Below are positions 30,290 through 64,000 of a DNA stretch of 64,000 nt, one piece after another. The translations under genes and the position numbers were made by a program. Source of the DNA: Cyanophora paradoxa CCMP329 (taxonomy: Eukaryota > Plantae > Glaucophyta); contig QPMI01000578.1 of NCBI GenBank assembly GCA_004431415.1, positions 40,054 through 104,053 on the forward strand, read 5' to 3'. The notes below the pieces were generated by a model. The model was not told the DNA's origin, searched no databases, and saw only the letters and a list, made by a program, of their open reading frames with translations. How positions within the stretch are numbered: the stretch's first letter is position 1; every line of letters begins with the position of its first letter.

Positions 30290-30321
<32 letters not shown>

Positions 30322-42300: not shown

Positions 42301-45300
42301 TCGGTGATCCGGCTGCGGCCCACGCAGGTTCGACAGCCGTTACAACCGGGGTGAACTCGACGGCGCTGGAGTATGTGAGAGGTTGCGCTGACACGGTTCG
42401 TCCGTTGACAGTAACCGCTACTGCCGCAGAGCCCGCAGCGCTAGCGGGCAGGCGGCAAGAAATTCTGTTGGGCGACACCGCATTGAAGGAGACGTTGCAA
42501 GCCTTGCCGGCCACGCTGACTGACACGTTCCGCGCATCCGAGCCGAATCCGGATCCATCGAGGCGCAGCATCGCACCTCCGTTGATTGAGGAAGAGGTTG
42601 AAAGGGAGCCATCCGATTTCTCGATCCCCGTCGCAGTCACCGCGTGCTGATATATGAAGGTGGTAGCTGGGTTGGGCACGTTACCGCGTCCCGCAACGTA
42701 CACAACGAGCGGGAAAGTGCCAGCCAGACCCTTGCCGAGAGTGCAGAAGATTGTGTCGTTATCAGGAGCGTCCGAGCGCTGAACGTCTGTTACTATGCAG
42801 CCTGCAGGCCCCACGGTGACGATGTATGGCTCGGCAGCGTCCACGCCAGTGAGGTCTGGCAACGTGCCCTTGATTGCCAGGCTACTTCCTTCGGTGCCCG
42901 AAGTGGGCTCGACCGAGACAATGGTAGAGCCATCGGTGACATCGATCCCGCAGAGCGGAGCGATGGTGTCGAGGCAGACGACGTCAGCGCCGCCGATCGA
43001 GCTCAGGACGTACGTTCCCAGCGCCGACTCTGGGACGGACTGCATGTCGCACCAGAGCTCGCCAACGGAGATGTTCAGCACAAGACAGTCCAGAAGAGTC
43101 GAGTTTTTCTTCAGCGTGACCCGCGCTTGCTGCGCTGAAGGGTTCACCGTTCCGACAAGGCCCAGGCGAAGATGCGTGCCTCCAGTAAACAGAGTCTTTT
43201 TGCTGGACATCGAGGTTACGTGGGCCGCGAACGTGTACGCAAGGTCCCCGCTGGCCGCGCCGACGTCGGGGAACACGACCGACAGGTTGAAACTGCCTGG
43301 CCGGCCTGCGCCCGCAAGGCACTCGATGTGAGTGCTGTTGAAGGCGGTGGCGTCCACAGTGCATTCAACCCCGCCCATCGCAACTCTCGGTTGCTTCGAA
43401 GAGAGGTCGAAGCCAGTGCCTTCAATAGTAACGGCCATGCTTGCCGCGCCGATCGTGGGGCGAACGGAAGTGATCGAAGGCGTGCGGGCTGCGATTCCGA
43501 GTGATTAATCACTAGCTATATAGAAATTACGGACTTATTGAGCATGTAATCAGCGATCGCTTATATGCACCAGGATCAAAAGAGTACGAAAGCAATGTGC
43601 CGGTCGCGACATCTCGCATCGGCACCTGCAGCTGCACATCTCCAAACAGGACGGAAGTCGCGATCACGCTGTGGGTGATGCCGGCGACGGGGTCCGCGCT
43701 TGCCGCCGTCGGAGTGCATACCAATGCCTTCCGAGCCGCAGATACGACGGCGCACGACACGTTCGCAGACGGGCCTTGGAGCGTGACCTCGGACAGTTGG
43801 GATCCGGTGGGGAAGCCGCTACCAGCGAACGTGATGAAGTTGCGACCGAGAAAAGAGCCAGAAGTGGGGGACACGCTCGAGATGTCTGCGTCAGGCGTGA
43901 GAAAGAGCTCGCGTTTGCAGGTGATCAGGCGGTAGATTTGAATGCATATGCTCACATGTGCCAACGGAAACAGTCACTGCACTCGAAGACCGGCCGTAAC
44001 TGGACGTCAGAACGGCGACTCGCTGGTCCCCAATCGGAAGGCGATCTCGCACAACGCAGAACAGAGCTGTATCATTTGAGAGGTTGGAGTCGATTTGGCA
44101 ATTTACATCGCCGATACTAGCTGAAATAGCGCTGGTGAGCTTCGTGCCGACGATTGTGAAGCTAGTCGATTCTCCGAAAGATCCGATCGAATCAGGAGTA
44201 ATGCTGGTCACACTTGGCGTGGAATCTGCGGGACAGTTCTGAAATCACAAACGTGCAAATTCGAATCCATGAAAAGGGCCGGGCGCGGGCTCACCCGCGG
44301 AGGTAGAGACTGCTCCAACGAGCTGCCTCGTCTGTCCGCTGATTGTGACAGTGAGACCATAGGTATTTGCACTCAAGGCCGGGGCGGTGCAGATGATGCT
44401 TTCGTAGCTCACGACAACAGCCGAACAAGGCTCCCCGCCGACAGTAACCGAGACTTCCGACGTATTTGTGACGGGGCCCATCGCAGCGCCAACAATGGTG
44501 AAGTTGTTTCCGCCTACATCAAATTAAACGTCAAGAAGGCCGCGAGAATGTCAAGCACAGTAGCGCACCCAGCACGCCGACAGACGTTGGAGTCACGGAA
44601 TCGACCCCTGCAGAAATGCTATCGGCGAGAATACGAAGAATCGAAAGAACATGGAAGTATTTATAAAATTAGGCGCACGGAGATTGTACGTGAACGTCGC
44701 GGAAGACCTGCTCAACCCCAGCGGAAGGACGTTGAGGCTTACGGAGTACAGACCCGCAACGATGCGAGGGAGGGTACACGAGACGACCGTGCTCGAGGCC
44801 GCGAAAGCGCTGCACGCTTCCTTCCGGCTGCCTTGGATGAGGTGCACGCTAACGTCGTAGGTCCCGTTGAGCGTCTTGAAGTCGCCGGTCAGCGTCATCG
44901 TCTCACCACCGACGCCGGAGGTTGGGGAGATAGAGTTCACGACAGCCGTCGCCTCTGCGTCGAGCAATGATCATGAGAAAGGAAGCTAATTTATTTCACA
45001 GAACTTCATATTTTCTCTAGATCTGCAGCGCTGATTGTTGAGCGGATGTTCGCACCGCTCGCGTAAGAGAGACTGCAGCTGCTGTTCTCGGAGGGGCGAC
45101 AGTAGGCTTGTATATTGTTGGACCAGACTTGTACCTGCGGAGTTGTTTCTGCGGGGCGGAGGTGTCAGAACATGAGCAAGTAATTGCAAGCCACCACGAA
45201 GCGAAATGTGTGCACCGACGGTTGACAGCATCTCAGCGGGTATAGGCGCAAACAGAACGCCGCCGCGAATGACTTCTGACACGGAAACGGCGATCGTATC

Positions 45301-47842
45301 GTTAAGGTCCGAATTCAATGAATTCTGCAGTCGAAGGTTGGAAGCATCTACGACGAGGTCAGGAAGGTCGCCCGGCAGGTTCTTGAATTTCATCTGAATT
45401 TCGGGGCTCGAGGTCAGAGCCGGCTGACGAGACACAGCAGAGCGCACGCGGGCCCGGGGCCGGCGCGCGTACCCTGTAAGCTGTGCTCGGGCAGAGCGTG
45501 CGAGACGTGAAAGAGGCCTCCTTTGTCACGGCAACGTCGAGGTTGTCGAGCAGAAGAGCGTTGCTGAGGGAAGCTGCGTCCGTGTCCCAGGCGTACGGGC
45601 CGGCGCTTTGAATCCGCTTGCCGCTCAGCGGGGCCCACGAGGAGCTAATATTCCACGTCCCGGTTACGTTGGTCTCCACCGAACGAACCTTGCTTGCCGA
45701 AGCGCGTACATCTCCGGAGTCGGAGGTAGAGAACGCGGGCACGGGTGAGCACGTCTTGACGGAAACCTTCGCAGCCATCAGCCATCATGATCAATTTTTA
45801 AACATTGCAACTGATCGATTGACGCGCAAGGCCGCACAGTGTACTGGTACTTCACAGTGTCTCCAGAAGAAAGGTCTTCACGGGTGACGTCCACGCCATG
45901 CACCCAATCTGACGCGTACGGCCATGTCGGTGTAAGTTATATAATTATAAAATCACCTGTTCTGAACACTTTGAAACTAAAGCTCAAGCTCGGGCTTCAA
46001 ATGGCGCACCGCTTGGTAGAGTAGAAATGGACACGTCGTCAATGTGCCACGGTCCTGAAAATTGCGAAACATGCACAGTTAGGCTGCTTAGCTTGTGTGC
46101 AGATTTATAATTAGAAATTAGAGTATATCAAGTCGGGAACCTAGCAGAGTATTGACATTGTCGTGATGGAAAATCATAGATCTGATAAAGTGCGATCTGG
46201 AGCCACGATATGCGTCGAGTTGGGCGTCGAGGTCGATGCATGCACTGCGCAGAAGAACTCAAGTGAGCGTGCCGAGGCGCGACATCAATTCAAGGGTGGA
46301 GGAGACGGACTATCGCCAGGTGTTATCAGCGACGATGTTGGGCCATCGAGCGACCTCGAAGTAATTGTTTGGGCGCACTGCCCTGATAGGCATTGTCATC
46401 GCCACAGACCTCCAGCCCTCATCAACAATTTCAACTGTTTCGGGGTGCACGTGTAAACCATTAGGATGTTGGTGCGGGGCGGCCGGGGCCAAATTAAAGA
46501 TGTGCATTTATACGTAGAAGTATGCGCCCAGATCGAATCCGTGCGCACCAAGCATGTTCGCTCTGGAGGTAGGGGGGATCTTGTACGCCATGCAGACCAC
46601 GGGGAACTTTTTCCTGCATTGAGAAGGTCATTGAAAGTTTGTATACAAGTACTCATAACTGACGATCGCGATGAGACCGCAACTCACGTGTCGTATGAAG
46701 AACCGCTCAAGCCGGGGCGGCTGAGCCAGTTACCATTCTCGAAGATGCGCGTAGACAGCGATGACGTCGGCGGAAAATACACGGAGCTCGACCCTGTATG
46801 CGCATCCGTTGTGTTCCTTCTGGGCCCTGTGTCTGAATTGCGCGCAGGGTACGACTGAACTGTCGCTCCAGTCTCGAAACTGTCGTGGAAAAGCAGCTGC
46901 GCCTTGGTCCCTCGGATAATTTTATCCTGCCGGTGTGTGTTGAGCATTGAACTTATCGCGTCCTTCATCTGATCAGCCGTTGCCGTGGCAGGTACGGAGA
47001 CAGTCACTGTCTGCTCGCCAAACTTGATAGAGACGGTCATATTTGGCGGCGTCGCGGAAGCTGGAAAATCAAAGGTGATTGTCTGTACGTCGGGCGCTAT
47101 CCGGGTTGCGACGGTCAGAGTCTGGACCTCATCAAATGCCTCCATTCCCCCGTTGTGAACGTCGACTTTTCCGAGCTGCGCCTCGTTCGCCAACGGAGCC
47201 CTGTAGCAGCAATTCATTATATATATAGAGGGCAACGGTAAAACGCTGTTAAGATCTCTAGAACTAGGCTTACCCCATCCTGACGGAGATAGTATGCAAA
47301 GCGCTACCGCCGCTTTGTACTTGAAGACTTCTCATGAAAAGTTGCTCCCCCGCGGTCAGATAGAAAGTCTGGGATGTCTGCATGCATGCAGGTCATCGAA
47401 GGAACGAGCCTCGGTATTCAAGGCAGAACCGTTGAACAGAACAAGATTAATACCTGCGATGCGAACTTCCAGGTTTCGTACGCCCACGTGGAACCCGGGT
47501 TCTCGGCGATTCTAGTGAGATTCTGCATTGACGGGCCCGCCTCGAGCTCTGAATTATCGTCCGAGCCTGGGATTGCGGGACTTAGATTCAGAGCGCGCGC
47601 GTTCAATTAGTAAACAAAGATGAACTAACACAGGTAAAAGGTGTACGAAGTCGTGTACGGGGCCGTAAAAACCATGGTCATCCGTTGGCCAGTGTTCGAT
47701 TCCCAGTTCCGAGGTTGCTCGTCCGCCGCTCCCAGAATCTTGACGAGGTACGGTGGCGAGCTCGCGTTGCTCATACGGATGCGTAGTTGAGCGAGCGTGA
47801 CCGGACTCAGATTGTTCCACCTCTCCAGTCTCACGCCTCGCA
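28773..47842 (-). CDS. Fibrocystin/PKHD1L1-like giant cell-surface protein (PA14, multiple IPT/TIG, two G8 domains, beta-helix repeats) with C-terminal CAP domain, (SP)n stalk and single TM helix; 5' end not found
   Basis: PA14-like [23 protein letters not shown] (~47640-47840). IPT repeats ([24 protein letters not shown]; [15 protein letters not shown]). G8 [46 protein letters not shown] (~41100-41370); second G8 ~36150-36510. [50 protein letters not shown]; stop at 28773. Some frameshifts, e.g. ~32355 and ~30775. Confidence 0.8.
30110..31035 (-). repeat. Coding tandem repeat (~42-bp unit) encoding (SP)n-TETP, a hydroxyproline-rich-type stalk
   Basis: ggcgtctcggtcgggcttggcgacgggctcgggctggggctc repeated about 20 times. 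Confidence 0.9.
31045..31545 (-). other. CAP/SCP/PR-1 domain within the giant gene (two exons)
   Basis: [27 protein letters not shown]|[24 protein letters not shown], i.e. the GENL and GHFTQ-like CAP motifs. Confidence 0.85.
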
Positions 47843-48290
47843 CTGGGAGCCAGGAATTAAGTTTACCACATGGTAAACTTGCAACTTCACTCACTTAGGG
47901 CTGACTTTACCACACCTGTCTTTACCCCACCTAGGAAAGCCGCGCGGGGGAGCACTGCTGCCGTGCTAAATGTGCTTAGCTAGGCATAAGTGCATGGGAT
48001 CCATTGAGCGCCGATGGCCCGGTAGCTTCTGTGGTCCGTCGTGGATGCGAGCACAACTCGTCAAGAGAGCGACGCATGCGGGCTGCCTTGACTGGTTCAA
48101 GTGTTCTAAAAGGTCGTTTAGAGACGATTTGCAGCTTTTAAGGGGAGGTTGTTGGGCGGCCCGACCTCGGCCAACTTCACCCAGGCCCGACCATTATGAG
48201 CTGGGGCGCAGCGCACAGCGCTTTGAATGCGGTAAGCATTGATTTCAGCTACGTTACAACCGAAGTACGGCTGCCACATCGGTGCTCTTG

Positions 48291-48724
48291 AGACCGATGG
48301 CTGCCAATGGTTGCGTACCGAACGCTCAGACCGAGCGCCGCCGAGGTAGCCGGCGGTGCTAACGCCTCTAGCTAGCTAGATCGCGTGCTCTAGCTAGTTC
48401 TCCGACCGCCGGGTGCCGCCGTTGGAGCCTTGCTGGTGCGGTGGTCGGACGGGTACCCCCTGCGAGTAGTTCCCCCGGGCAAAGTCGCCGGGGCAAAGTC
48501 GCCGGGGCAAACTTGCCGGGGCGAAGTCGCGGTTTCCGGAGCGCAGGATCTGGAGCTGTGTTCTGCTAGCGTCCAAGTGCTGTCGGCGTGGCAAGCGGTC
48601 AAAGTGCTGTCGGCGTGGAAGCGTGGCACGTGGCGCTCGAAAAGGTGCGCCGGAGGCCTTCTTTCCGCACCCATAGCGGCCTTGCGCGTGCGTCCGTGCG
48701 GCCTCCCTTGACAGGAGCGTCTCT
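48291..48724. repeat. Dispersed element X, copy 1 (~430 bp; internal 14-bp array gggcaaagtcgccg)
   Basis: Near-identical to 50976-51414, 54563-54893 and 57866-57962. Confidence 0.9.
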
Positions 48725-48729
48725 CGCGC

Positions 48730-49879
48730 GGGCAGCTCCGACAGCGGAGTAGGCAGTCGGCTGCTTCTTCAGGCGCGGCGGTCTCGGCGATCGCTACTGC
48801 GATGTCGGCGGAGCCAAACCGCTCCGTCGAGGTGAGCGTTTTCGCGGACTTGCGGTACTACCCGTGGGGCATCCAGGACCCTGAAGAGACGCAAGGTACT
48901 TGTCGCTTTTGCGACCAGGATGCCATACCATAGAAAACCCCTGTGCAGTTCCTGTGCGAGGCATGGCTGTGCGATTCACGATCAATGTTTCGGAGTCGTG
49001 GCCGGAAGCGTTAGTGGCCGATGTGTGCCGTGAGTATTTCGTGCCCAAATCCAATGTAGCGCTGTATTGGTACAACCCAGAAACCAATGGATTCGAGCGG
49101 CCGGTGCGAAAGTTCCTTGCGTCTGACGATGATTTCTGATGCGGCTTCCGCGAATTCACGCGTGCGCGTGCATGCGCACAGACATCGAAACCACAGGGAC
49201 CATCTCCAGGCGATCTCTTCTACCTCACGGGCGACCAATTTCCGCCGGGAGCGGAGCCCGCACGATACCTGGCAAGATTGGCCGCCCGTTTCTCAAAGGC
49301 ACCAGCGACGGCAGCGACGCAGAACAGCGATGCTCTAGATATAACTTCGCTCGTGCCGCCACCGCTCGACACGCGCGGACTCCTTTGTCTGCGCGCGACG
49401 CCACCAGTCGAGAATATTAATGAAGGAAACAGCTCCGTAGCGGTGCATGTTGTAGCGGACGATTGGAGAATTATGTCAGGTGCCCATTTATCCCGTTTCA
49501 GAGACATTTCTTACAGAATTAATGGGCCTGTGCAGATCTTGTGCAAGTCAATGATCCGGATTCGGGTCGTGGCCGGACGCGCTGCTGGCGCGGGCGTGCA
49601 GCGAGTTTCTCGTACCGAAAAACAATGTAGCGCTGTATTGGTTCAACCCAGAAACCAGTGGATTCGAGCGGCCGGTGCAAGCTTTCTTTGCGTCTGACGA
49701 TGATTTCTGATGCGGCTTCCGGATCCGCGAATTCACGCGTGCGCGTGCATGTGCACAGACATCGAAACCTCAGGGACCATCACCGGGTGATTTCTTCTAC
49801 CTCGCGGGCGACCAGTTCCCGCGGGGATCCGGAGAACGAGCGCAGGCCTCGAACTACCTGTCGCGAATGCGAGCCATGA
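48730..49879 (+). CDS. Family member 1: two tandem copies of the shared ~110-aa domain, no recognisable H3-like tail (frameshifted as assembled)
   Basis: SVEV.VFAD.., VRFTINVSESWPEALVA..LYWYNPETNGFERP|TSKPQGPSPGDLFYL, then NEGNSSVAVHVVAD..SG|PVQI. Intron positions match the other copies. Confidence 0.55.
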
Positions 49880-50270
49880 TTGCTCTGGAAAACATCCGCT
49901 CAATGGCGACGTATAGTGCTAGCTAGCTTCATTATTCCTGATGCACTACGCGTACGGCGCCGGCTTCGTCTCGAATACGAATTCGACCAGCATGTATATT
50001 CTCTAGTGGTTTTCGCATACATGGCTCTCTAGAGAATTCGAACTCTTCGATTTATGCGACCGCTAGCGCTCCGCGGCAGCGTTGTCCCAAGGCCGATACG
50101 CTCATTTGCGGCAAAGGATTCGAATTAAGAAAAATACAGCAATCTCTGCGCAGACGAATTCGAATCTCTGTTCCGCTCAGCGGCTAGCTATAGCGTGCAT
50201 GGCGCCGGCGGCCACGACTTCGAATAAGATGCAGCTGTCGGGCCGCTAGGGGCCTTGAAACGGGCAATAG

Positions 50271-50918
50271 CTAGGATCCGAAAACGGTCGCCAGGAAGGG
50301 CGCGTGCTCGACTTCTGGGATCACCGAATCCTCGCGACGTAGTACAGATCATCCGGGATGGCCCTGGACTCGACCTCTGTGCACGCGCAAGCGTGAATTC
50401 GCGAATGCCGCATCATGATCAGAAATCGAGGGAAGACGGAAAGATATCTTGCACCGGCTCGAAGTACTCGGCAAAGAACTCGAGGTAAATGAAGCACCGA
50501 CTTGCTGGGTCGTATCGATACATCATCAGCGCATCAGGGTGCGCGTGGTATGTGCTGCGGACGAGTTCACGGTACGCAGCCTCCAGAAGATCTGTCTGCC
50601 ACGTCTCTGAAACATAGATCTTCAATCTAACAGGCCCTGCGCTGTTTAGATTAGGGCACAAGCTTAAGGCATCGATGCAACCGTGGTCGCACCTGTCATA
50701 TCAGTGATGCCCACCGGAAGGGGCCGGCAGTCCCCGAGAACGCGCACCTCGACAGAGCTGCCCGCGTTCTCGAGCCGCGATCGCGGCGCGTACAGAGCAA
50801 TCAGCGCTTCCGACTCGGCGACCTGCTCTTCTGTTGGCTCTGGTACTGGTGGCGCCGACCGCGGCTTCCGTGAAGTAACGAGCTGTTTTCGAATACGTTT
50901 TCCCCATGCGGTAAGCAT
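50271..50918 (-). CDS. Family member 2: degenerate H3-tail-like N-terminus plus shared domain (3 exons)
   Basis: GKRIRKQLVTSRKPRSAP (cf. H3 GKAPRKQLATKAARKSAP), then PTEEQVAESEALIALYAPR..SSVEVRVLGDCR..MTG|PVRLKIYVSETWQTDLLEAAYREL..YRYDPASRCF. Confidence 0.65.
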
Positions 50919-50975
50919 CGATCTCAGCTACTTTACAAACGAACTACGAGCGCCAAGTTGGTGGTCTCGAGCTCG

Positions 50976-51414
50976 AGACCGATGGCCGCGTACCGAACGC
51001 TCAGACCGAGCGCCGCCGAGGTAGCCGGCGGTGCTAAAGCCTCTAGCTAGCTAGATCGCGTGCTCTAGCTAGTTCTCCGACCGCCGGGTGCCGCCGTTGG
51101 AGCCTTGCTAGTGTGGTGGTCGGACGGGTACCCCCTGCGCGTAGTTCCCCCCGGGCAAAGTCGCCGGGGCAAAGTCGCCGGGGCAAACTTGCCGGGGCGA
51201 AGTCGCGGTTTCCGGAGCGCCGGATCTGGAGCTGTGTTCTGCTAGCGTCCGAAGTGCTGTCGGCGTGGCAAGCGGTCAAAGTGCTGTCGGCGTGGAAGCG
51301 TGGCACGTGGCGCTCGAAAAGGTGCGCCGGATGCCTTCTTTCCGCATCCATGGCCATGGCGGGGTTAAGCTGCGCGTGCGTCCGTGCGGCCTCCCTTGAC
51401 AGATGCGTCTCTCA
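50976..51414. repeat. Dispersed element X, copy 2, between divergent genes
   Basis: Sequence identity to copy 1. Confidence 0.9.
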
Positions 51415-51417
51415 GGG

Positions 51418-52330
51418 ATGGATGCACACGAGGAGACGAAACGCGAGTTCGAAGAGAGCGGCCAGGAGCGTGCGGAGAAACGCCAGCTGGAGACTTTCCA
51501 AGACGCCGGGGCGAACTTTCCGGAGCGAAGTCGCATGAGCGCTATTAAGCGCCCGCGTGCCGGAGATGCGTATGATGCGAAGGACGCAAAGGATGAAGTA
51601 CGCGCGGTCACACTTCATATCGCTACATCCAGCGTGCGTCTGCTCGCTCGCGCTTCGAATTCTTTGCTCGCTCGGCCACAAATTTAAACCACGCGCGCAG
51701 GAGATGCCCGTGGTCACTCTCGAAATCTCCAGCCCCGCCTGCATCGTCGTGCGGCCCGCCCGCCGGCGCCTCTTGCTCGTTTTCTCAGACCAGCCGGCTT
51801 GCCATTGGCACAGGACCCGGAGCAGAGCACCTTCAAGCCCAAGCAGCGGCTGCCGGCAGAGGGGCTGGCCATCATCGAGGCCACCCTGCGTGCCCACCAG
51901 CCCCGCACGGTCGCATTGCGGCTTGAGAAGTGCGCGCGGCTCCCGAGCGCCGCCTCGTGCACTAAGTGCAGCCCGCAGCGCCCGCCTCGAGGACATTCCG
52001 GCATCGCTGCAGGATATCCTCGTCGAGAAGGTTGCGCACATCCACCTCGTCGGCGAGACCACGCTGCACCCGTTCCCAGAGGAGAACGCAGAGTCGGCCC
52101 TCGTCTATGCTACTATGTCGGACCTTCGCAAGCGTGGGCTGCTCACGATGACCATGTCGCCCGAGGTGCGGCACGGCCATGGCCAGCTAGCGCCCTCCCT
52201 TTCCTCGACCCCGCCCATCTGCAACCCAGGTACCCTGGCTCGTGGACCCCCTCAAGTTCGTTTGCGGCGAGTTGCCACCCTACAACAAGATTTTCCAACG
52301 GTTTAACACCTTCATGGAGCACATCTACGG
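51418..52330 (+). CDS. Hypothetical multi-exon protein starting MDAHEETKREFEES (divergent partner gene)
   Basis: ATG directly after element X. GT-AG-bounded exons EMPVVTLEISSPACIV / DPEQSTFKPKQRL / RLEDIPASLQDILVEK. Same N-terminus as 54898. Confidence 0.45.
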
Positions 52331-52778
52331 CCCCTTCCTGTGAAATCAATCAGGGCAGGCACTCGTTATGCACTACGGCGCCGACATGTAATGCGCTACC
52401 TCAGTAGCTCTGAAACCCTGACTTCAATTAAATAGTGCACGCCTCCGCCTCGCCTATCGCCGGAGTCGACATTAGCAGTTGACGACGCTCAAATGGCAGG
52501 CGCGCGCTTTAGGCGAGAAAGCGCCATCGCTGAGCTACATGAAGCTCTCCACGCGTACATTCATGGGTTGCCGCTGCCCACAAGGGAGCCGACAAGTCGA
52601 CAACCGGCATCTTCGATGACAGGTGCATGCACATGCAGTTTTGCGGTCAAACCAGAATTGAGGAGAAACAGATCAAAAACCAAACCAGAACCAAGCTCGC
52701 CAAGATGTTCGAACCAGGGTGAAAGTGTCCAAATGGATTCCTGGTGCGAGGGTATCCGGGATTAGCTATGTGTCACTT

Positions 52779-53009
52779 GCAGTGATGTGTTCGGCATCGA
52801 TACCGGTATATTCGGATCCAGGGTATTGATTGAGTTTCCAGCTCAATCGCGAGCGTCTGCAGCTGGCATGGCTTATGTGAAGGCAGCACAGAAAACCATC
52901 GTGACATTCTTGTGCATGGTACACTCAAGATCTAAATATCGCGCGCAGTGATGTGTTCGGCATCGATACCGGTATATTCGGATCCAGGGTATTGATTGAG
53001 TTTCCAGCT
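52779..53009. repeat. 65-bp exact direct repeat
   Basis: 52779-52843 equals 52945-53009. Confidence 0.9.
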
Positions 53010-53912
53010 AAATCGTGCGCACACATACATATGTTATTGAGTCCGTTCTGCTAATCCTTATAATCTCTGCGAAATGCACTTGCAGTTTGCGAAATGCGAG
53101 AGCGCAATCCCAAGTTCTTCGAGAGCCTTGAAACAAAGTAGTTTGAATTACACAGCTCTCTCGTCAAGAACTGCTCCACGTGCACCAGCACAAGACGAGA
53201 AGCACATGTTGGTGTCGCATGCAGGTAAAAACCATTGCACGTTAATCAACACATGAATTAATTGAATGTATACGCAGGGTTTCTATTCGCTGTTCCCTCT
53301 TATGCAGTACGTACACTACCAGGAATCTCGATAAATATAGCCAGCGAACAGATCTAGAGCGAAGCTTACAGACGGTATATCTTTCCAATAGACTATTACC
53401 ATCCGGACTTAAGCATTTCCTTGCCTCCCCAAAACTCTATTGCTAGAATAGTTATAGCAATCAGAAGGTCAGGTACATATGCACGCAGACATGCAGCTTG
53501 TTAAAGATCCGGCCGCGGAGGTAAGGCTCCTAGGAAACGGTACAGGTAGAATTTGTAATGTAGAACTTAGGTAAGGCTTGGTAGCCCGAGTGTATACGTA
53601 GTGGTATCCTGTTCGTGTCGTAGATTTGTTGTGTAATATGATGTGTTAAATATATTTGAATCGTTGTGTAAAGTTTCGGATTTCCAAATTCGTGCTGCAC
53701 TACGGCGCCGGCTTCGACTTGGATCCGAGACGAATGCGACCAGCATGACTACTATATAGTTCACGTCTCCTGCTACTCAGAATTCGAATTCGAGAAAACA
53801 ATACAGCAATCTCTGTGCAGAAGAATCTGTGTTTGGCTAGTGCGCATGGCGTCGGCGACCACGAATAAGATGCAGCTGCGGACCCGTACTAGGTCCTAGG
53901 GATTTGCACTGG

Positions 53913-54535
53913 CTAGGATCCGGAAACGGTCGCCAGGAAGGGCACGTGCTCGATTTCGGGACCACCTCATGCCTCGCGACGTAGAACAAATCATCCGGGA
54001 ATGGCCCTGTACTCGACGCCTGTGCACATGCACGCGTGAATTCGGGAATGCCGCATCAGAAATCAAGGTAAGAAGCAAAGATCGCTTGCACCGGCGGCTC
54101 GAAGCAACGGCTTTCTGGATCGTACCAATAGAGCGCAAGCCGCTAACATTGCCTACAGAGTTGCATTCGCAGTCCAGGTCGAAGTAAGCCTGGATCAGAA
54201 GGTCTGTCTGCCACGACATAGAAACATCTATCCTGACGCGCACTGGCCTGCCTGTTGAGATCAGGCACACAATCAGGGCAACGATGCCGGGTTGCAATTG
54301 CACGTGTGCACCCGTCTTTTCAGTGACGCGTAGCGGGAAGGCCGGCAGTCACCGAGAACCGCACCTCGACTGAGCTGCCCCCGTGCACGAGCCGCGGTCG
54401 TGGCGCGTATAGAGCAATCAGCACTTCCGACTCTGCGATCTGCTCTGCTGTCGGCGGCATGCGCAGCTGTCCCGCTGTCACTCCTGACTTCCTTGCAGCT
54501 TTGGTAGCGAGCTGTTTTCGAGGTACTTTCTGCAT
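53913..54535 (-). CDS. Family member 3: H3(14-28) mimic plus shared domain
   Basis: [18 protein letters not shown] is 14/15 identical to H3 K14-S28. It is followed by PPTAEQIAESEVLIALYAPRPR..SSVEVR and RPVRVRIDVSMSWQTDLLIQAY. Confidence 0.7.
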
Positions 54536-54562
54536 TCTGGAACGCAGTCCGACAGCGAGCGA

Positions 54563-54893
54563 ACCGAGCGCCGCCGTCTTTGGAGCCTTGCTGGTGCGTG
54601 GTCGAACGAGTACCCCCGGCAGGAAGTTCCCCCCGGGCAAAGCCGCCGGGGCAAAGTCGCCGGGGCAAAGTCGCCGGAGCACTGTCGCGGTTTCCGGAGC
54701 GCCGGATCTGGAGCTGTGTTCTGCTAGCGTCCGAAGTGCTGTCGGCGGGGCAAGCGGTCAAAGTGCTGTCGGCGTGGAAGCGTGGCACGTGGCGCTCGAA
54801 AGGTGCGCCGGATGCCTTCTTTCCGCATGCGCACCCATATATAGCGGCCTTGCGCGTGCGTCCGTGCGGCCTCCCTTGACAGTAGCGTCTCTC
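54563..54893. repeat. Dispersed element X, copy 3, between divergent genes
   Basis: Sequence identity to copies 1 and 2. Confidence 0.9.
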
Positions 54894-54897
54894 AGGG

Positions 54898-55730
54898 ATG
54901 AATGCACACGAGGAGACGAAACGCAAACTCGAAGAGAGCGAACAGGAGGTTGATTATGAGCTTGAGACGAGGAAAGCGGCCCGGCGCGTGCGGAGAAACG
55001 TGCGCGAGATGAGGCGTCGCGGCGGCAGCTCGAGAAGCAAGCGTCAGCGGAAGCGGTGGCGGAGATTCATCGACGTCTGCGGAAGGCTGAGGAGCGGGCT
55101 GCAGCCGCCAAGAACGACGCAAGAGCTCTCAGCGACGACGAAGAAGTGGAAGAGCGGCCAAAGGAGGTTCCGTGTCGTACCTGTGTCGAGAACCCATCAT
55201 CCCCACTGTGCATATGCGCCATCATCCTGGGTATCGAAAGTGCCAGCACTTTGCACGAACTCCCTATGGACGTTCGGCCCTTCGCTAATTTGGCGCTTCG
55301 GATTGCCAAGCTCCACCGGCAGTCGCGGGCCTTCGACATCCTCCCCCAGTCGGCGAGGACAGCGATCGCGAAGGAGAAGGTGAGGACACGAATTACTGCA
55401 CCACCCTGATTGAATCTCTGCCGTCGGAGGGGGAGGGAATCTGGACCTGAACAGTGCGCATGGCCTTCTGTTTTAATTTACCCCGAGAAATTTTGCTTTC
55501 ACAGAGCCAGTGATCATGAGCACAGGGGACTCTGGGAGGACATCTGTATGGTCACCCTCGAAGGTTTTCAAGTGGTGAAGAGCCCGCTGCGCATGTTTCA
55601 GCTCTGTGATGGTGGTTTCCGCGTTTGCGATCCTCTTCATCCGTCCGTGGATGAAGCGCTTCGCGACCTCTGCGGACTCTGCCTCAGCAACAGCGACCTC
55701 GAGTTCTTTAGGACATTTCCAAGCGCCTGA
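54898..55730 (+). CDS. Hypothetical protein starting MNAHEETKRKLEES, with coiled-coil and CxxC-x7-CxC segment (frameshift as assembled)
   Basis: Shares its N-terminus with 51418. AEIHRRLRKAEERAAAAK..PCRTCVENPSSPLCIC; second exon ..QLCDGGFRVCDPLHPSVDEALRDL, a 72-bp piece of which is copied at 56907-56978. Confidence 0.4.
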
Positions 55731-56165: not shown

Positions 56166-56803
56166 CTAGGATCCTGTAACGGTTGCCAGGAAGGGTGCAT
56201 GCTCGACTTCCGGGATGATTTCCTTCATTGCCACGTAGAACAGGTCATCCGGGGATGGCCCTGGACTCGACGCCTGTGCGCATGCACGCGTGAATTCGGG
56301 AATGCCGCATCAGAAATCGAGGTAAGAAGCAAAGATCGCTTGCACCAGCGGCTCGAAGCACCGGCTAGCTGGGTCGTACCGATAGAGCGACAGCTCGCGG
56401 CGATCAATGGGCACCGGTGTGCAGCGCAATTCCCGGTACGCTTGGGCCAGAAGATCTTTCTCCCACGTCTTTGAAACATACAGCTTGATTCGCACAGGCC
56501 CTGCGCGTTGCAATTAGGGCGCACTGGCAGAGCAACGATGAACCGGACACATGTGCACCTGTCATTTCAGTGACGCGTGGCCGAGAAGGGCGGCAGTCCC
56601 CGAGAACGCGCACCTCGACAGAGCTGCCCTCGAGCTCGTTCTCGAGCCGCGGTAAACGTCGCGGCGTGTATAGAGCAATCAGCGCTTCCGACTCTGCGAC
56701 CTGCTCCGCTGTTGGCTCTGGATCGGGTACGAATCGTGAAGTAGGCGGTGCTTTCTTGGTCTGGGTCTAGTGCCGAGAACTTTGCGGGGAGCTTGCTTGA
56801 CAT
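56166..56803 (-). CDS. Family member 4: degenerate H3-like N-terminus plus shared domain
   Basis: KQAPRKVLGTR (cf. H3 [10 protein letters not shown]); VLGDCRPSRPRVTEMTG|PVRIKLYVSKTWEKDLLAQAYREL..YRYDPASRCFEPL|ASSPGPSPDDLFYVAMKEIIPEVEHAPFL. Confidence 0.6.
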
Positions 56804-57130
56804 TGCTTCTAGAGATGCGCGGCCGCAACGTTAACCCCAATGCCTTAATGTTTACCCCCCGGTGGGATTACCCCCTGGGCATACTGACCGTGACTTCGTT
56901 CGCGATTCAGCTCTGTGATGGTGGTTTCCGCGTTCGCGATCCTCTTCATCCGTCCGTGGATGAAGCGCTTCGCGACCTTCGCGAAATCAATGCCGATACA
57001 TTAAATCGCGACGAAAATTCGAATTGACAAAACGAAGTACAGCATTCCCTGTTCAAATATCGTGCATGGCGTCGGCGGCCATGAATTCCAATAAGATGCA
57101 GCTGTCGGGCCGCTAGGGCCTTGGCACTGG

Positions 57131-57761
57131 CTAGGATCCGGAAACGGTCGCCAGGAAGGGCGCGTGCTCGACATCCGGTATTACCGAATTCCTCGCCACG
57201 TAGACCAGGTCATCCGCGAATGGCCCCAGCGGACTCGACGCCTGTGCACATGTTCGCGTGAATTCGCGAATACCGGATCAGAAATCGAGGTAAGAAGCAA
57301 AGATCGCTTGCACCAGCGGCTCGAAGCACCGGCTAGCTGGGTCATACCGATACAGATCCAAAGTGCGGAAATCGATTACGTACGCATGACAGTTCAGGTC
57401 CATGTACGCACGGGCCCGAAGAACTCTCTGCCACGACATTCGAAAGTTTGAAATATCTATCGTGACTCGCACAGGCCCTGCGCTGTTGCGATTAGGGCTG
57501 TTGCGAGGCGAAGATGCAACCGGGTTGGACCTGTCATTGAAGTGACGCGTAGCGGGAAGGCCGGCAGTCACCGAGAACGCGAACCTCGATAGAGCTGCCC
57601 TCGTTCTCGAGCCGCGGTCGCGGCGTGAATAGAGCAATCAGCGCTTCCGACTCTGCGATCTGCTCTGCTGTCGGCTGTCGGGACTCTGTCGCTGCTGACT
57701 TCCGTGAAGCTTTGGAAGCGAGCTGCTTGCTGCTTGCTGCTGCTTCGTCGCCGCGCTGCAT
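57131..57761 (-). CDS. Family member 5: H3(18-29) mimic plus shared domain
   Basis: KQLASKASRKSA is 10/12 identical to H3 [12 protein letters not shown]. Then PTAEQIAESEALIALFTPRPRLENEGSSIEVRVLGDCR and LDLYRYDPASRCFEPL. Confidence 0.65.
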
Positions 57762-57865
57762 GTTCGAAATCCGCAGGAATGCGCAGGCGCACCGTGATCT
57801 ACTGCGCGCAGGCATGCGCAGGCATGAAATCATGAGCGCCAGACTCGATCTACTCAATCTGCTGG

Positions 57866-57962
57866 GTGCCGCTTTTGGAGCCTTGCTGGTGCAGTGGTCG
57901 GACGGGTACCCCCCGGCAAAGTAGTTCCCCCGGGCAAAGTCGCCGGGGCAAAGTCGCCGGGG
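57866..57962. repeat. Dispersed element X, copy 4 (truncated)
   Basis: ttggagccttgctggtgc..ggtcggacgggtacccc..gggcaaagtcgccggggcaaagtcgccgggg. Confidence 0.85.
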
Positions 57963-58329
57963 ACACTTGGAGCGAAGACGCGAGGAAGCTCCAGTACGCA
58001 AATTTAGAGTATGCAAACCCGCCCGAACCGTGGAATCAACCATTTGAACGCACTGCCGCATACGCAGGTCAAAACCTCGTCCGGAGCGCCCTGCAGCGGA
58101 GCACCTCGGTTTAAAGCTCCGGTTCTCACAAGTAGAGGTAGGCAAACCTGCAGATCCGTGAATCAACCATTTGAACGCAGCGCGGCACACGCAGGTCGAA
58201 ACCTCGGCCGAAACCTCTTGCAACTCCGAGCTCAAGCGGGTACTTGGGGAGAAGCGAGAAGCTCCCGCAGTAATGCACACGCAAAGCTGTTCACTCGAGC
58301 CCACGCACTTGCAGATGTGCGCCCGTGCC

Positions 58330-60230
58330 TGTGCTGTGTGAATGCACGTGGACTTGCAGCTGAGTGTGCAACAGGTTGAGAACACGTTCAGAGCCCTCCT
58401 TTTGGATTCGAAGAACACTCCGCTCTTCATTCGTCCGAAGTGGCTTTTCGGTTCGCCGAAGGAGCAGGGATATCGTTCCTTGGAATCGCGTCACCCAATT
58501 TCCGGATATGCATTGACAGTACCTTCCTCGCATCGGACAACCACAGAGCAACTTTGGTGCCTCTGTTTGATCCAAGCATCGTCTACTGCGGGGTGTGAGT
58601 AACAGCACGGAGCACGTCGAAAGGATTCGTAAAACTCTTGATATCCAGTGGCCGTCACTTCGGGCGATCGAAATCGACGACCTAGCCACCGCAGCGAAGC
58701 TGGACGGAACCTTGCAGAAAGACAGAAGACAAAAAGGTCTCAAATCCGGAATCCAGATCTTTCTACGGAATTTTTGCGTAAGGCGTTCGAGAAACCTGAG
58801 GATTTCAGATTCTTCGGGACTGGCTGGGACAGCGCCGAAGTGGACGAGACGAGGCTGGCCTTCGCTTTTCGGGAATTGGAAACAGGCATCGGGATTATCA
58901 AAGTCATTTTAAAAGGGTGGGGTTGAAGCTGACTTCTGCAAAGTTTTCGCTATCACTATCTATCGCTCTCGCAAACTTCCGCTATCGTTTAGTATCCGGA
59001 GACGAGCAGGAGGTTTGTCCTCGACGTCTGTGATAAAGAGGTGAGCTTGCTTTACTTCTGCTTTTTCAACCCGGCTGTTCTGCTGTTAATTATAATCGCA
59101 GGATGCACGTGTTGCTCTGGAGCTGAGCAAGTCTGAATGCGTCGACGGTGGAAAAGATGCATCCGCTCCGACACTGACACCTTCGATGCAAAAAGAAAAG
59201 GATGCTTCGAACAAACCTTTCCCTCCCATTTCATTCGTCCCAGCGCAAGGTGCCTCAAATCTCCAGTCGGAATGGTCTTCAACCTATGGAGGCTGTCACA
59301 AACACACTGGTGACACGATGAAAGACAGTCTATCTATCCCTCGGATAAGTTGAATTCCGGCTCGCAGTACCGGTTCTCAGAATGCCGAACTTCGGATCCG
59401 GAGGAGATTCGATGCTTGCAGCAGCAGGTGAAATCACTTCAGGATGATAACGCCTTACTTCGACAAGCGAAAGAGCGCGTCGACGGTAAATGCCTTTTTT
59501 GCGTTCAGCTATAACTGCTTCAGTTAATTAGTATCCGCGCGTAATCCCCGCTGCAGCCCCGACTGCAGCGGCTGCAAGAAAACGCTTTCCTGTCGCCCAG
59601 CTGCAGCGGCTGCAAGGTCGAATCGCTCAGGGGCGCCTCGTTCATTCTTCTTTGAAACGTCTGCAGGCCTCCAGAATGAGAATGCTTCCCTGCTCGCCCA
59701 GCTGCAACGGCTGCAAGGTCGAATCGCTCAGGGGCGCCTTCGTTCATTCTTCTTTTGAAACGTCTGCAGGCGTCCAGCATGAAAATGCTTCCCTGCTCGC
59801 CCAGCTGCAACGGCTGCAAGGTCAAATCGCTCAGGGGCGCCTTCGTTCATTCTCTTTTGAAACGTCTGCAGGCGTCCAAATGAGAATGCTTCCCTGCCGC
59901 CCAGCTGCAACGGCTGCAAGGTCAAATCGCTCAGGGGCGCCTTCTTTCATTCTTCGTTCGAAACGTCTGCAGGCATCCAGAATGAGAATGCTTCCCTGCT
60001 CGCCCAACTGCAGCGCTGCAAGGTCGAATCGCTCAGGGGCGCCTTCTTCCAGTCTCCTCTTGAAACGTCTGCAGGCGTCCAGAATGAGAATGCTTCCCTG
60101 GTCGCCAACTGCAGTGGCTGAAAGGTCAAATTGCTCGGGGCGCCTTCTTTCATTCTTCGTTTGAAACGTCTGCAGGCATCCAGAATGAGAATGCTTCCCT
60201 GGTCGCCCAGCTGCAGCGGACCAATGGTGT
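58330..60230 (+). CDS. Hypothetical multi-exon protein ending in coiled-coil repeats (structure uncertain)
   Basis: Protein-like exon fragments (QVENTFRALLLDSKNTPLFIRPKWLFGS; LRKAFEKPEDFRFFGTGW; EEIRCLQQQVKSLQDDNALLRQAKE) lead into the 102-bp repeat. Confidence 0.3.
59596..60220 (+). repeat. ~102-bp tandem repeat, about 6 copies, probably coding (NENASLLAQLQRLQG)
   Basis: Unit starts at 59596, 59697, 59800, 59900, 60003, 60104 and 60206. Confidence 0.9.
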
Positions 60231-60951
60231 TTTTTTAGACTGCTTTTCGATTTAGGTCTCGATTTGACCGTTTCCCGTGCGTGTAGCTGTGAATGCAGCT
60301 CCCCAAGCGCAACTGCAGCGGCTGACCGGTTTCCACTTCGCCGTTTCTCGGAATTGGGATTTCTGAGTGACTGATAATGACTGCAGCTATGAATGCGGGT
60401 CTCCAATCTCAGAAGAAAGCTCTTCGTGGTACGCTATCTCACTCCTCGCGGTACATTCAATTTCCGGCCTTGAGTATGGGTATCTTAGATGAAGTCACGA
60501 CGCTTCGTGGTACGGCGGTTTCCTCCCCGATGATTTTATGAACGTCGCGGTACATTTATGTTACACCTCGTTCGCGATTCTTTGTAAATGTCAGCTGAAA
60601 TTGCGACACTGCGAGGTATGGCGGTTCCCCTCGATGCATTTTATTTACTCCGATGCTGATATTGTGATCAGCAAAAATCGACGACCTGGAGGATGCTGAA
60701 TTCCAGCGCCTGTTCGAAGGCGTGCTCAATATTTAGACGTGTGATCTTCGTTTAAATCACAATTGAATTTCAGTATTGCACTGAACCTGCTGTTCAAATA
60801 CGATTTAATCGGGAAGCTTCCACACAGTGCATACTCAGGCCACGGTCATAGAGGAAGGAGGGGGGGAAGAGAAGGGGGGGGAGTGCCGAACTTACCGCGC
60901 CGCAAAAAAAGCCGGCTTGGCGTGCAGTGCTGCCACAACTCGAAGCTGCTG

Positions 60952-61580
60952 ATGGCGAAAGTGAAAGAGAGAGCGCGTATGTCTACAGGCGGAAAAGCTC
61001 CTCGAAAGAACCTCGCACAGCGGCCGCGGCCGCCGACAGCGGAGCAGGTCGCGGAGTCGGAAGCACTGAATGCTCTTTACGCGCCACGACCGCGGCCCGA
61101 GAACGAAGGCAGCTTTGTTGACGTACACATTCTCGGCGACTGCCGCCTGCCCGCTACGCGTCACTGCAATGACAGGTGCAAATGTACACCGATTCACCGT
61201 TGCTCTGCCAGTGTGCCGTGAACTCAACAGCGCATGCGCAGGGCCTGTGCGAGTCACGATCCGTGCTTCGGACTCGAATGCGTGGAAGAGCGAGCTACTG
61301 GACCTGGCGTTCGAGGAGCTGCACTGCAGTACGCATGTGCACCTCGAGGAGCTGGTGCTGTATCGATCTCGTACGACCAAGCAGGCTGGTACTTCGAGCT
61401 TCCGTGCAAAGCGATTGTTGCGTCTTACGGTGATTTCTGATGCGGATCTCGCGAATTCACGGTGCGCGTGCACAGGCGTCGAGTCCGGGCCATCCCCGGA
61501 GATCTGTATTACGTCGCGAGGAGGATATCATCCCGGAAGTCGAGCATGTACCTTTCCTGCGATCAATCAGGAATAGTTGC
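60952..61580 (+). CDS. Family member 6: H3(1-21) mimic with K9M plus shared domain
   Basis: [23 protein letters not shown] vs H3 [23 protein letters not shown]. Then PPTAEQVAESEALNALYAPRPRPENEGSFVDVHILGDCR and |GPVRVTIRASDSNAWKSELLDLAFEEL. Small indels in the assembled frame. Confidence 0.7.
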
Positions 61581-61699
61581 AAGTGCCGGCATCCCTTCCC
61601 TAGTCCGGATTTCGTAGCCAAAAATACGCGGATGTATATACGTATACGCGCGGCACGGATACAACAGGAGCGCCTAATTGCCAGCGCTGTAGTGCAACA

Positions 61700-62330
61700 C
61701 GAGCGCCTCAAATTCCTCCTACGGCGCTCTATGTAGTCTCCATCTAAATCTAGATCTAGAGGGTTGCTCGCATTTCGCGCTCTGCGAAGTCCACAACCAG
61801 ATCCCGCACTAGCGAGCGTGTCACCGTTGCCACTGGCCACGGGCGGGAGTGAAAACAGCACTAACCTGATGGCCGTCATGCTGCACTGCTCGCTGTACCG
61901 ATTGATGACGTCAATTCATTTCAAGAGAATTCTGCGAGCTTGCGCGAGCCTCGCGCCAATGCTGTCGTAGTATCTGCAGACCTTGCCGTCGATAACCAAG
62001 AGTGTCCAGTGTCGTCGGTTGTTGACGGGGACGAGAGCGCGTGTGCTGGTGCCATTCAAGTGCTCGAGTAACGCTTCTAGTAGGATTCAGCGTCGTGGAG
62101 GCGAGCGGATGTGCGATGAACCAATTCTGTGTGACTGCCTCCTGGCCGCCGCCGCGCGGATGCAAACGAGCGCGCTCTCGATTGCGCTCGATGACAGCCA
62201 CAAATCCCGGCTGCAGCTGAAGCTGAGCTGATGCCGAACTAGATCTGCGCTAACGATCTTCGGCCGCGCCTTGACTGTGCCCAGCTCCTCCAACTCAGAA
62301 GAGGGCTCTGGGTCACCACACTGCAGCTGT
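61700..62330 (-). pseudogene. Ulp1/SENP-like (peptidase C48) cysteine protease, degenerate or mis-assembled
   Basis: Motifs in the canonical order: DLWLSSSAIE (~62200), ALVPVNNRRHWTLLVIDGKVCRYYDS (~62040-61960), WQR..CGIW (~61830-61797). Frameshifts or stops lie between them. Confidence 0.6.
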
Positions 62331-62916
62331 CTTTGCCGCCGTATGCGCTTCTTAAAACTACAGGAGAGGGCTTCGATCTGAATCATCACATTGCATATCC
62401 CGCCGGCGCTTCGCTGCCTTCGCGGAGGCCATCTGCGAGATCCGGAGAACGGACGACCTAGGCCTGCAGGGGAACAAGCCCGCATGAGTTCCAGCGGCGA
62501 ACTGTAAAGGCAGAGCACGAAGCGGGCGTGCACATTCACGAATGCCGAAGTCGACGGCCTATATCTATCAACGTTCAACGTTCAGCGCCTTGATCATGAA
62601 CAGGCCACGCGGCGCCCGAGTCCACGTCAGCGAGGCTGCGGCGATGGCTAAGCCTCCGCTAGCTGTTTTACGCGCTCTACTCGATCTCCGACCACCGGTC
62701 ACCGCCTGAAAGCTTCGAGACTTGCTGGCGCATTGAGCGCACGTGTACCCCCACTAGTCCATCCCGGGCCGTCCGGGCCGTCCCGGACGAGACCAAGATC
62801 CAGCAATCTAGCGTCTGCACAGGCAGCGCGGCGCGAGCTCGAGGAGCGCGACTCCCCAGTTTCCAGTTTTCCGACAGATCTAGCGACTCTCGGAATTTCG
62901 AGGCGCGCTCGCTCTA

Positions 62917-63544
62917 ATGGCGAAGACAAACAAAAGGCGCGAAAGTACAACGGATCGATTCCTCAGAAGAAAATGCCTACCAAAGCTCAGAAAGCGAAGT
63001 CAGAGCCGGAGCCCGACCCGTCAAAGAAGCAGGTGCCCGAGAACGAGGGCAGCTCTAAAACTGTCGAGGTGCGCGTTCTCGGCGACTGCCGGCCTGCCCC
63101 GCTACGCGTCACTTCAATGACAGGTGCATGCCCGGTTGCATCGTTGCTTCTGCTAGGTGCCGTGACTCAACAGCGCATGCGCAGGGCCTGTGCGAGTCAC
63201 GATCCGTGCTTCGACTCGAATGCGTGGAAGAGCGAGCTACTGGACCTGGCGTTCTTGGAGCTGCACTGCAGTACGCATGTGGATGACCGCGGCACTCTGG
63301 CGTGCATTGGTACGACCCAGCAAGCCGAACCTTCCAGTCGTTGGTGCAAGCGATCTTTGCGTCGTATACGTACGGTGATTTCTGCTGCGGATCTCGCGAA
63401 TTCACGGGTGCGCGTGCACAGGCGTCAAGGGCGCAGGGGCCATCCCGGATGATCTGTTTTACATACGAAGGAATACAGTTGATCCGGCCGTCGAGCATGT
63501 ACCTTTTCCTGGCGGATCCGGACGCAGTGATAGAGCTTGACTAG
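62917..63544 (+). CDS. Family member 7: diverged full H3-tail mimic plus shared domain
   Basis: Adding one A in an A-run gives MAKTKQKARKYNGSIPQKKMPTKAQKAKS. Then ENEGSSKTVEVRVLGDCRPAPLRVTSMTG|PVRVTI..AWKSELLDLAFLEL..YDPASRTF. Confidence 0.6.
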
Positions 63545-63649
63545 CCCATGGCCGTGGCTGGAATTGCGTTTGCATGTTCGTGCTCTCATGTATGAATTGT
63601 TCACTTCGAGTGACTGTCTAGCTGAAATGATTGACAATTGCATGATCGA

Positions 63650-63886
63650 TTACACGATAATAATGCATTTCGAGAGGGACTGCATCTCTAAGATACGATT
63701 TTTTATCGTCTTGATCTCATTGTCGACATTATCGCTCTGTGCTTTGATCAGAGCGTTCTTCTGGCGCACATGATCGAGAAGTGACGCAAGCGCTGTTTCA
63801 AGAACGTCGAAGGACGTCGCTTGCAATTGCTGGTTGAGTGTTCCTAGGGCACGCGTTGCGTCGTAGTTGACATCGGTTTTGAGCAC
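63650..63886 (-). CDS. Hypothetical coiled-coil exon/ORF, gene likely continues beyond window
   Basis: Protein-like helical ORF ..LLDHVRQKNALIKAQSDNVDNEIKTIKNRILEM. Confidence 0.25.
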   Translation of the reverse strand: MLKTDVNYDATRALGTLNQQLQATSFDVLETALASLLDHVRQKNALIKAQSDNVDNEIKTIKNRILEMQSLSKCIIIV

Positions 63887-64000
63887 CAGAAATCATGAGT
63901 GCCATCTGCGCACAGGAAGCTCATTTATGGCACCACAAATCTGGAAACTGCAAAAAGAACGTCTGCGAAAGAGAGGTGCAGACGAACCTTCTTATTAAGC

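Follow-up and report, generated by a model that had tools for sequence, protein, structure and literature searches.

The 64,000-nucleotide stretch of Cyanophora paradoxa DNA analyzed here (the window) carries on its minus strand a gene for a very divergent Ulp1/SENP-type protease. The gene lies within a cluster of eight local paralogues, most of which join an N-terminal histone H3-like tail to an orphan domain for which a ubiquitin-like fold is predicted at low confidence. That a protease of family C48 is encoded at this place we regard as close to certain. Of the explanations weighed for the locus as a whole, the most likely one, which we hold tentatively and at less than even probability, is that the paralogues form a local, host-resident family of H3-tail/ubiquitin-like decoys accompanied by a co-located desumoylase that would act on chromatin. 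It ranks ahead of a transposon cargo, of drifting tails with an unrelated neighbor, and of a viral relic. Coordinates of the relevant features are given in Table 1.

Table 1. Protease gene, H3-tail gene family, and associated sequence elements; positions are those of the window, and tail figures give the control bins that reach the score
Feature	Position	Strand	Basis
Ulp1/SENP-type protease gene, clan CE, family C48	61700..62580	-	Profile E 3.5e-6; SENP1/2 best PDB matches
Frame that carries both the catalytic His (62011) and the Asp (61966)	61919..62086	-	C48 profile, PDB matches, block test
Cys-Gly motif, likely catalytic Cys at 61808	61780..61808	-	Frame other than that of His/Asp; spacing and control bins
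c61p, H3 tail, linker, and predicted ubiquitin-like domain	60952..61600	+	PDB H3 E 2.9e-5; tail 0/658 bins
c63p, divergent H3 tail and predicted ubiquitin-like domain	62917..63540	+	78% DNA identity to c61p; tail 1/658 bins
c57m, weak tail	57131..57760	-	Tail 10/658 bins
c56m, source of first fold model	56166..56830	-	Tail 3/658 bins
c54m, tail corresponding to H3 14-38, ARKS around lysine 27 kept	53840..54560	-	PDB H3 E 4.7e-4; tail 0/658 bins
c50m, H3-like tail and domain	50190..50960	-	Tail 1/658 bins
c49a and c49b, tandem tail-less paralogous domains	48780..49900	+	57-64% identity to others; tail 115/658 bins
TGA sites	49137, 49708, 61438	+	DF-TGA alignment column
TGA sites	57280, 56312, 54058, 50421	-	DF-TGA alignment column
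TGC in place of TGA, c63p	63383	+	DF-TGA alignment column
Shared noncoding module with 14-bp tandem repeats	50906..51468		88-90% identity among copies
Further module copies	48227-48725, 54564-54948, 57861-57982		88-90% identity
CCACGTCA-type motif between protease and c63p	62622..62633	+	Weak

A preliminary description of this DNA had claimed a hidden C48 protease on the minus strand, and the claim was borne out by three lines of evidence: a custom profile, PDB matches, and a Cys-Gly motif at the distance typical of the family. The profile, built from 77 proteins (73 and four more), matched the 56-amino-acid frame that holds both His and Asp at E 3.5e-6 among 1,976 open reading frames of the window, with the runner-up at E 2. 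When this piece was searched against PDB with phmmer, the best 11 of 15 matches were SENP2 and SENP1 (E 0.008 to 0.022). The score of the His/Asp block was reached by none of 423 other bins. The profile search that had been proposed as a check gave a mixed outcome. The match to the custom profile was significant, the score of the 56-amino-acid piece taken by itself against Pfam Peptidase_C48 (PF02902) was below the gathering cutoff (15.1 bits, E 0.021; cutoff, 20.7), and when frameshifts were allowed for, neither the alignment with individual proteins nor that with the complete C48 profile extended past the His/Asp block or joined the blocks.

All four motifs named earlier were found on the minus strand where they had been placed, namely, WLSSSAI from 62200, VPVNNRRHWTLLVID with the His, YYDS with the Asp, and CGIW with the Cys, although two of them did not stand in every detail. 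The Trp-Leu motif lies in the His/Asp frame behind a stop, and its block is not significant by itself (200 of 683 bins reach the score). The candidate oxyanion Gln nearest to the Cys is one codon off: as read, it lies seven codons before the Cys, in an indel-rich stretch, and the reference profile has one fewer. The Cys is found in another frame; its block consists of CGI, a one-base shift, and VVDFAE, and 7 of 541 bins attain its score when a shift costs 8, whereas 42 do so when it costs 12. Like SENP1/SENP2 and Ulp1, the protease shows the order and spacing of His, Asp, and Cys, the HW and YYDS motifs, preceded by a PVN strand, and an upstream Trp-Leu. The His-to-Cys distance is 67.7 codons, compared with a reference median of 69 (range, 39 to 102; n = 70). 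However, it is very divergent from these enzymes, remaining below the Pfam cutoff as read, having 15 codons between His and Asp instead of 17 to 21 (two residues shorter), and reading WLSS in place of WLxD. The outer limits of the gene are estimates from translations; the catalytic domain spans approximately 62230-61700, and the start is provisional. Judged by its sequence, the enzyme would belong to the SUMO-type class, with SUMO, NEDD8/RUB, and ubiquitin all being candidate substrates. The window contained no second copy, and no relatives of the protease piece were found among 375 and 284 word-sharing candidates or in viral contigs.

Comparison with short-read contigs bears on the state of this gene. 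Between 61461 and 63105, the window differed from these contigs by 39 gaps and 1 substitution, the same in each of three DNA-type runs, and the frameshifts around the protease are therefore probably assembly errors. The contigs of the three runs spanned 30 of 30 bins of 60300-64000, where window mismatches were almost solely single-base gaps, and at least 20 runs, from one organism, each contain 55% of the sampled words of this region. The runs listed for it include no RNA run, and one possible RNA run gave no contig there, which counts neither for nor against expression. Among the 12 of 62 gap rows listed, none was inside the protease domain. We infer that the true frame is open and consider the gene probably intact. 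The window is an error-rich assembly close to its end, its right end lying 460 bases past c63p, and frameshifts are a poor guide to gene status. The protease sits on a single unbranched contig of 1,658 to 1,690 bases in the three runs, with depths of 61, 333, and 1853 versus 48 to 66, 270 to 360, and 1518 to 1969 for its neighbors; a 6,922-base contig that extends past the window end has a similar depth. Were there near-identical copies dispersed in the genome, such contigs should be broken or inflated. An unbranched contig at neighbor-like depth speaks against them, an argument that covers near-identical copies only, and the protease is likely single copy.

The family to which both flanking genes belong comprises eight local paralogues between 48 and 63.5 kb, four per strand, with 57-83% DNA identity. 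Its gene plan is an H3-like tail, a conserved linker, an intron of 53 to 66 bases, and then the orphan domain. Six paralogues have the tail; the tail-less c49a and c49b, arranged in tandem, are possibly one two-domain gene. Scored in a frameshift-aware test against one H3 sequence and 658 control bins, the tails of c61p and c54m were significant, those of c50m, c63p, and c56m marginal, and that of c57m weak. The c61p tail is in exact register with H3 1-21, with Met at position 9 and Lys 4, 14, and 18 kept, and zero substitutions separate the window from the short-read contigs at 60860-61145. The in-frame tail piece of c63p had no PDB match. Thus, of the earlier view that the protease lies between two histone-mimic genes, the family membership of both flanks stands, but of these two tails only that of c61p (60952) is significant alone. 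Rather than a two-gene cargo set, the flanking genes are members of the eight local paralogues, seven of which lack an adjoining protease. No histone fold was found in the window; the best score was 51, compared with 465 for H3 against itself, and was located far from the cluster. Met at position 9 is confined to one of six tails and the majority of tails are degraded, a picture as compatible with drift as with decoys.

The domain that follows the tail had no sequence relatives in Pfam, PDB sequences, metagenome contigs, ESM Atlas, or viral folds at E 0.001. Two low-confidence fold models, with pLDDT values of 55.5 (c56m) and 48.0 (c49a/c49b), both gave ubiquitin-like match lists, in which ubiquitin-like, RA, PB1, and FERM-type domains predominate. 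The best match of the first model was 6ra0 (Z 6.1, rmsd 2.6, 75 aligned) and that of the second was 6xgu (Z 4.4, rmsd 2.4, 58 aligned); both Z values are below 8 and may reflect a common arrangement only, and the models share alignment rows, are without the first strand, and read through the TGA. Going by their titles, we take 49 of the 50 rows in the first list to be beta-grasp domains. The Foldseek E value for the structural match was 0.35. The orphan domain is therefore only predicted, at low confidence, to have a ubiquitin-like (beta-grasp) fold. As for an identity with ubiquitin or SUMO, Pfam and PDB yielded no sequence match, and a C-terminal Gly-Gly was not found: GS closes four copies, and c63p alone has a GG, close to its end. 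An acidic ASDDDF stretch in the c49a/c49b region is reminiscent of a PB1 motif. Coding constraint was measurable in parts of the gene. The ratio pN/pS, from pairs that are not independent, was 0.56 in frame versus 1.29 and 1.17 out of frame for the linker and first strand, and 0.60 versus 1.28 and 0.98 for the last part; in the main exon of the domain, the first half had a value of 1.00. In a separate search for the family domain among 1.84 billion representatives, five matches at E 0.001 were rejected: they are unrelated repeat proteins, each score being the sum of five to six short stretches.

Seven of the eight copies carry an in-frame TGA within the domain, and c63p has TGC instead. The 72 to 84 bases around this codon start with a sequence resembling the donor of the first intron, end with CAG, and show no third-position excess by raw count. 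The donor-like start and CAG end suggest that the stretch is an intron; a true stop or read-through is possible. Its length is a multiple of three in seven of eight copies, compared with two of six for the first intron, and it is more conserved than the exons, with an in-frame pN/pS of 0.45. Selenocysteine found no support: a SECIS pattern, seen in 5 of 82 background bins and able to overlook diverged elements, was present in 0 of 8 copies, Rfam gave no SECIS at E 10, and no stable stem follows the TGA. General reassignment of TGA is not suggested either, a 654-codon host exon being without any TGA.

A shared noncoding module lies upstream of c50m, c54m, c57m, and c49a. Twice it separates a family gene from an unrelated gene facing away, and it is likely a two-way promoter. 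Its 14-bp motif has 13 matches versus 0.95 expected, with none beyond 57959 and none around the protease. Both orientations of the paralogues, their shared upstream modules, and their old divergence fit local duplication. The orphan genes that face away from c50m and c54m across the module (51420-52350 and 54900-55730, both on the plus strand) share only the first 20 codons or so; the latter contains a WPSVL stretch reminiscent of PWWP, with no Pfam match. The protease itself is arranged head-to-head with c63p and tail-to-tail with c61p. The CCACGTCA-type motif in the former interval, which we take to resemble the plant histone-promoter hexamer, is the sole exact match in the window; there are 4 one-mismatch matches versus 1.3 expected, and 3 of 100 shuffles reach 4.

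According to the decoy explanation, an H3 gene contributed its 5' end to a fusion with the gene of the beta-grasp domain, a step visible in the tails without a histone fold, and the unit was then copied in tandem and inverted, leaving the eight diverged copies. Each protein would present a free H3 N terminus to readers and writers, and its beta-grasp domain would perhaps serve as a docking or dimerizing module. The tail proteins could thus act as chromatin decoys while the protease would strip SUMO-type tags from chromatin proteins. With Met in place of lysine 9, c61p may trap an H3K9 methyltransferase in the manner of engineered K9M, as set out in the available part of PMC8167812. The protease is likely coexpressed with c63p; here the head-to-head layout is observed and the coexpression is suggested by the modules that other copies share with their partner genes. 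Against the decoy explanation count the seven paralogues that have no adjoining protease, the absence of the shared upstream module at the protease, the pN/pS of 1.00 in part of the main exon, and the in-frame TGA of seven copies.

The preliminary description, which took SUMOylation to support transposon silencing, had suggested that the protease and the H3 mimics may be carried by one selfish element. Such cargo of a single DNA transposon, VANDAL/KAONASHI-like or another Ulp1 carrier, surviving as a low-copy relic or with its transposase beyond the window, would loosen silencing; we rate this as unlikely, although second in rank. The premise that Ulp1 is known transposon cargo has precedent: Ulp1 domains are carried by non-TIR MULEs such as VANDAL/KAONASHI (available part of PMC13317346), and some MULE clades have both C48 and PB1, a beta-grasp domain, some without clear terminal inverted repeats (excerpts of PMC4948706). 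It is because of these clades that a transposon is kept under consideration. The short, divergent protease is in keeping with it, and the upstream 14-bp tandem repeats are reminiscent of VANC target repeats (as far as the consulted text of PMC5735166 goes). However, the repeats end at 57959, the family copies are just 57-83% identical, and the PB1 of plant MULEs belongs to the transposase gene and not to a tail protein. In line with the earlier remark that no transposase is recognizable in the window, no transposase, DUF1985, DUF287, or viral family was detected in 324 Pfam-scanned frames (108 of at least 75 amino acids and 107 of 42 to 74 amino acids in 47-64 kb, and 109 of at least 140 amino acids in 1-47 kb), where errors can hide a gene. 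Nor was a VANC-type gene (DUF1985, DUF287) holding or flanking a Ulp1 domain found in any frame of 47-64 kb. Terminal inverted repeats and target site duplications, also raised as a check, were not above chance in the window: there were 2 inverted repeats outside the family versus 0 to 2 in shuffles, zero with a target duplication, and around the c61p-protease-c63p block 9-bp direct repeats numbered 3 versus 1.1 expected, with no 10- or 11-bp ones. The unbranched protease contig at neighbor-like depth, the similar depth of the contig past the window end, and the lack of a second protease copy also argue against a selfish element. Within the window, the VANDAL reading is unsupported; the right end of an element may lie beyond it.

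It is likewise doubtful, and in our ranking third, that the parts have no joint function. The H3 piece, captured as a start, promoter, and nuclear address, would then be drifting in a fast-turnover orphan cluster, and the protease would be an unrelated neighbor that landed between copies. The tails vary widely and two copies are tail-less; K9M is one base change and is also present in H3 copies elsewhere that have diverged; unrelated orphan genes lie between members of the cluster; and a single protease accompanies eight paralogues. On the other hand, c61p keeps the H3 register for 1-21 and c54m for 14-28 despite 27% copy divergence, coding constraint is measurable, and the head-to-head placement of the protease and c63p matches that of partner genes and other copies. 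Giant viruses and Polinton-like viruses carry Ulp1-type proteases and histone mimics. The locus could accordingly be an endogenous fragment of such a virus, with which the dense orphan genes and the finding of one Ulp1 gene on a giant-virus-labeled contig would agree, but we consider this very improbable. Neither a relative of the protease piece nor the K9M string was found in viral contigs, there was no viral fold match at E 0.001, and no viral families appeared in the scanned frames. Spliceosomal-type introns of 53 to 66 bases are present, and GC and CpG match the neighboring host gene. The window as a whole is eukaryotic DNA whose introns are short.

Histone-mimic proteins such as EZHIP, PAF15/PCLAF, and influenza NS1 carry a copy of the H3 tail on a nonhistone protein. 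The family described here likewise has an H3 tail without a histone fold; it differs in having eight copies, varied tails, a predicted beta-grasp partner, and no detectable relatives. H3K9M that also carries ubiquitin on Lys 14 is a stronger binder and inhibitor of Clr4 than is either feature by itself (PMC8167812, in the portion available). Similarly, c61p has Met 9, keeps Lys 14, and has its predicted ubiquitin-like domain approximately 40 residues downstream. In contrast to the ubiquitin on Lys 14 reported in that portion, the c61p domain is backbone-joined, has no sequence likeness to ubiquitin, and is predicted to be equally RA-, PB1-, or ULD-like. In VANDAL elements, the Ulp1 domain is located inside the VANC gene (KAONASHI, KIU) and, in the excerpts of PMC13317346, its role is given as unknown, while VANC acts by binding DNA motifs (PMC5735166, consulted text). 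Features common to VANDAL or C48-PB1 MULEs (the latter as excerpted from PMC4948706) and this locus are a C48 domain near possible silencing genes, short noncoding tandem repeats, and a nearby beta-grasp domain, which here is predicted. Yet no MudrA/VANA transposase, DUF1985, or DUF287 was found at this locus, no dispersed copies were seen, and the action of VANC, so far as those texts describe it, is DNA binding and not histone mimicry. Crinkler/CR proteins are fast-evolving eukaryotic families with a ubiquitin-like domain and with Ulp1-like peptidases among their domains (part of PMC5289972). Their ubiquitin-like domain, as presented there, is an N-terminal header before the enzyme, whereas here it would stand C terminal to an H3 tail, with the protease encoded separately on the opposite strand.

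Ulp1-type genes and histone mimics are each already known. What is unusual is the layout, in which an H3 tail is fused to an orphan, predicted ubiquitin-like domain in a family of eight copies, one with K9M, beside a SUMO-type protease. No description of such a fusion was found in the literature searched, which is weak evidence. The interest of the locus rests more on the tail-domain family than on the protease. If the parts cooperate, c61p would be a natural single-chain trap of the K9M plus K14-ubiquitin kind, so far made in the laboratory only, and would allow a direct test of how ubiquitin-like surfaces steer H3K9 methyltransferases. If the tails drift, the finding shrinks to a misassembled protease gene within an orphan cluster. 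A bolder proposal, which we regard as improbable, is that the cluster is an anti-heterochromatin kit of one-chain mimics of ubiquitylated H3 tails, in which c61p would approximate K9M with K14-ubiquitin, to date the most powerful trap known for SUV39/Clr4 enzymes, the other copies would address other tail readers, a desumoylase would be coexpressed, and the whole would be left by or part of a selfish element.

K9M by itself is no rarity, as the string of c61p was also found in 12 metagenome stretches, 8 of which have an H3 fold or most of one. They gave zero matches to C48 or to the family domain, and no transposase was present in the 33 scanned of 70 long frames. Five stretches contain full-length H3 genes with a natural K9M (L013, L015, L020, and L021, with H3 at approximately 3500-4400, and L014:3650-4117); the first four adjoin ERCC4/MUS81 nuclease frames, and three of these four also adjoin a helicase frame. 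In two others (L012:3-941 and L016:641-1654), a K9M H3 tail and the last H3 helix are followed by a long unrelated frame. In a further stretch (L017:650-3406, minus strand), a frame of 919 codons encodes a ubiquitin domain at 43-112 and, internally at 318, the H3 K9M string; it adjoins a PARP-VIT-VWA frame.

Elsewhere in the window, a large fibrocystin-L-like surface-protein gene occupies 28776-47300 on the minus strand; its domains are of the TIG, G8, beta-helix, and CAP types, and it also has a Ser-Pro repeat. Two duplications, each 99% identical, pair 55597-55669 with 56906-56978 (73 bases) and 52779-52849 with 52945-53015 (71 bases); they point to either a recent local rearrangement or a duplication made in assembly. 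At 59578-60224 there are six 102-bp repeats, each of which, as read by eye, would be made up of a 51-base coiled-coil exon and an intron of approximately equal length.
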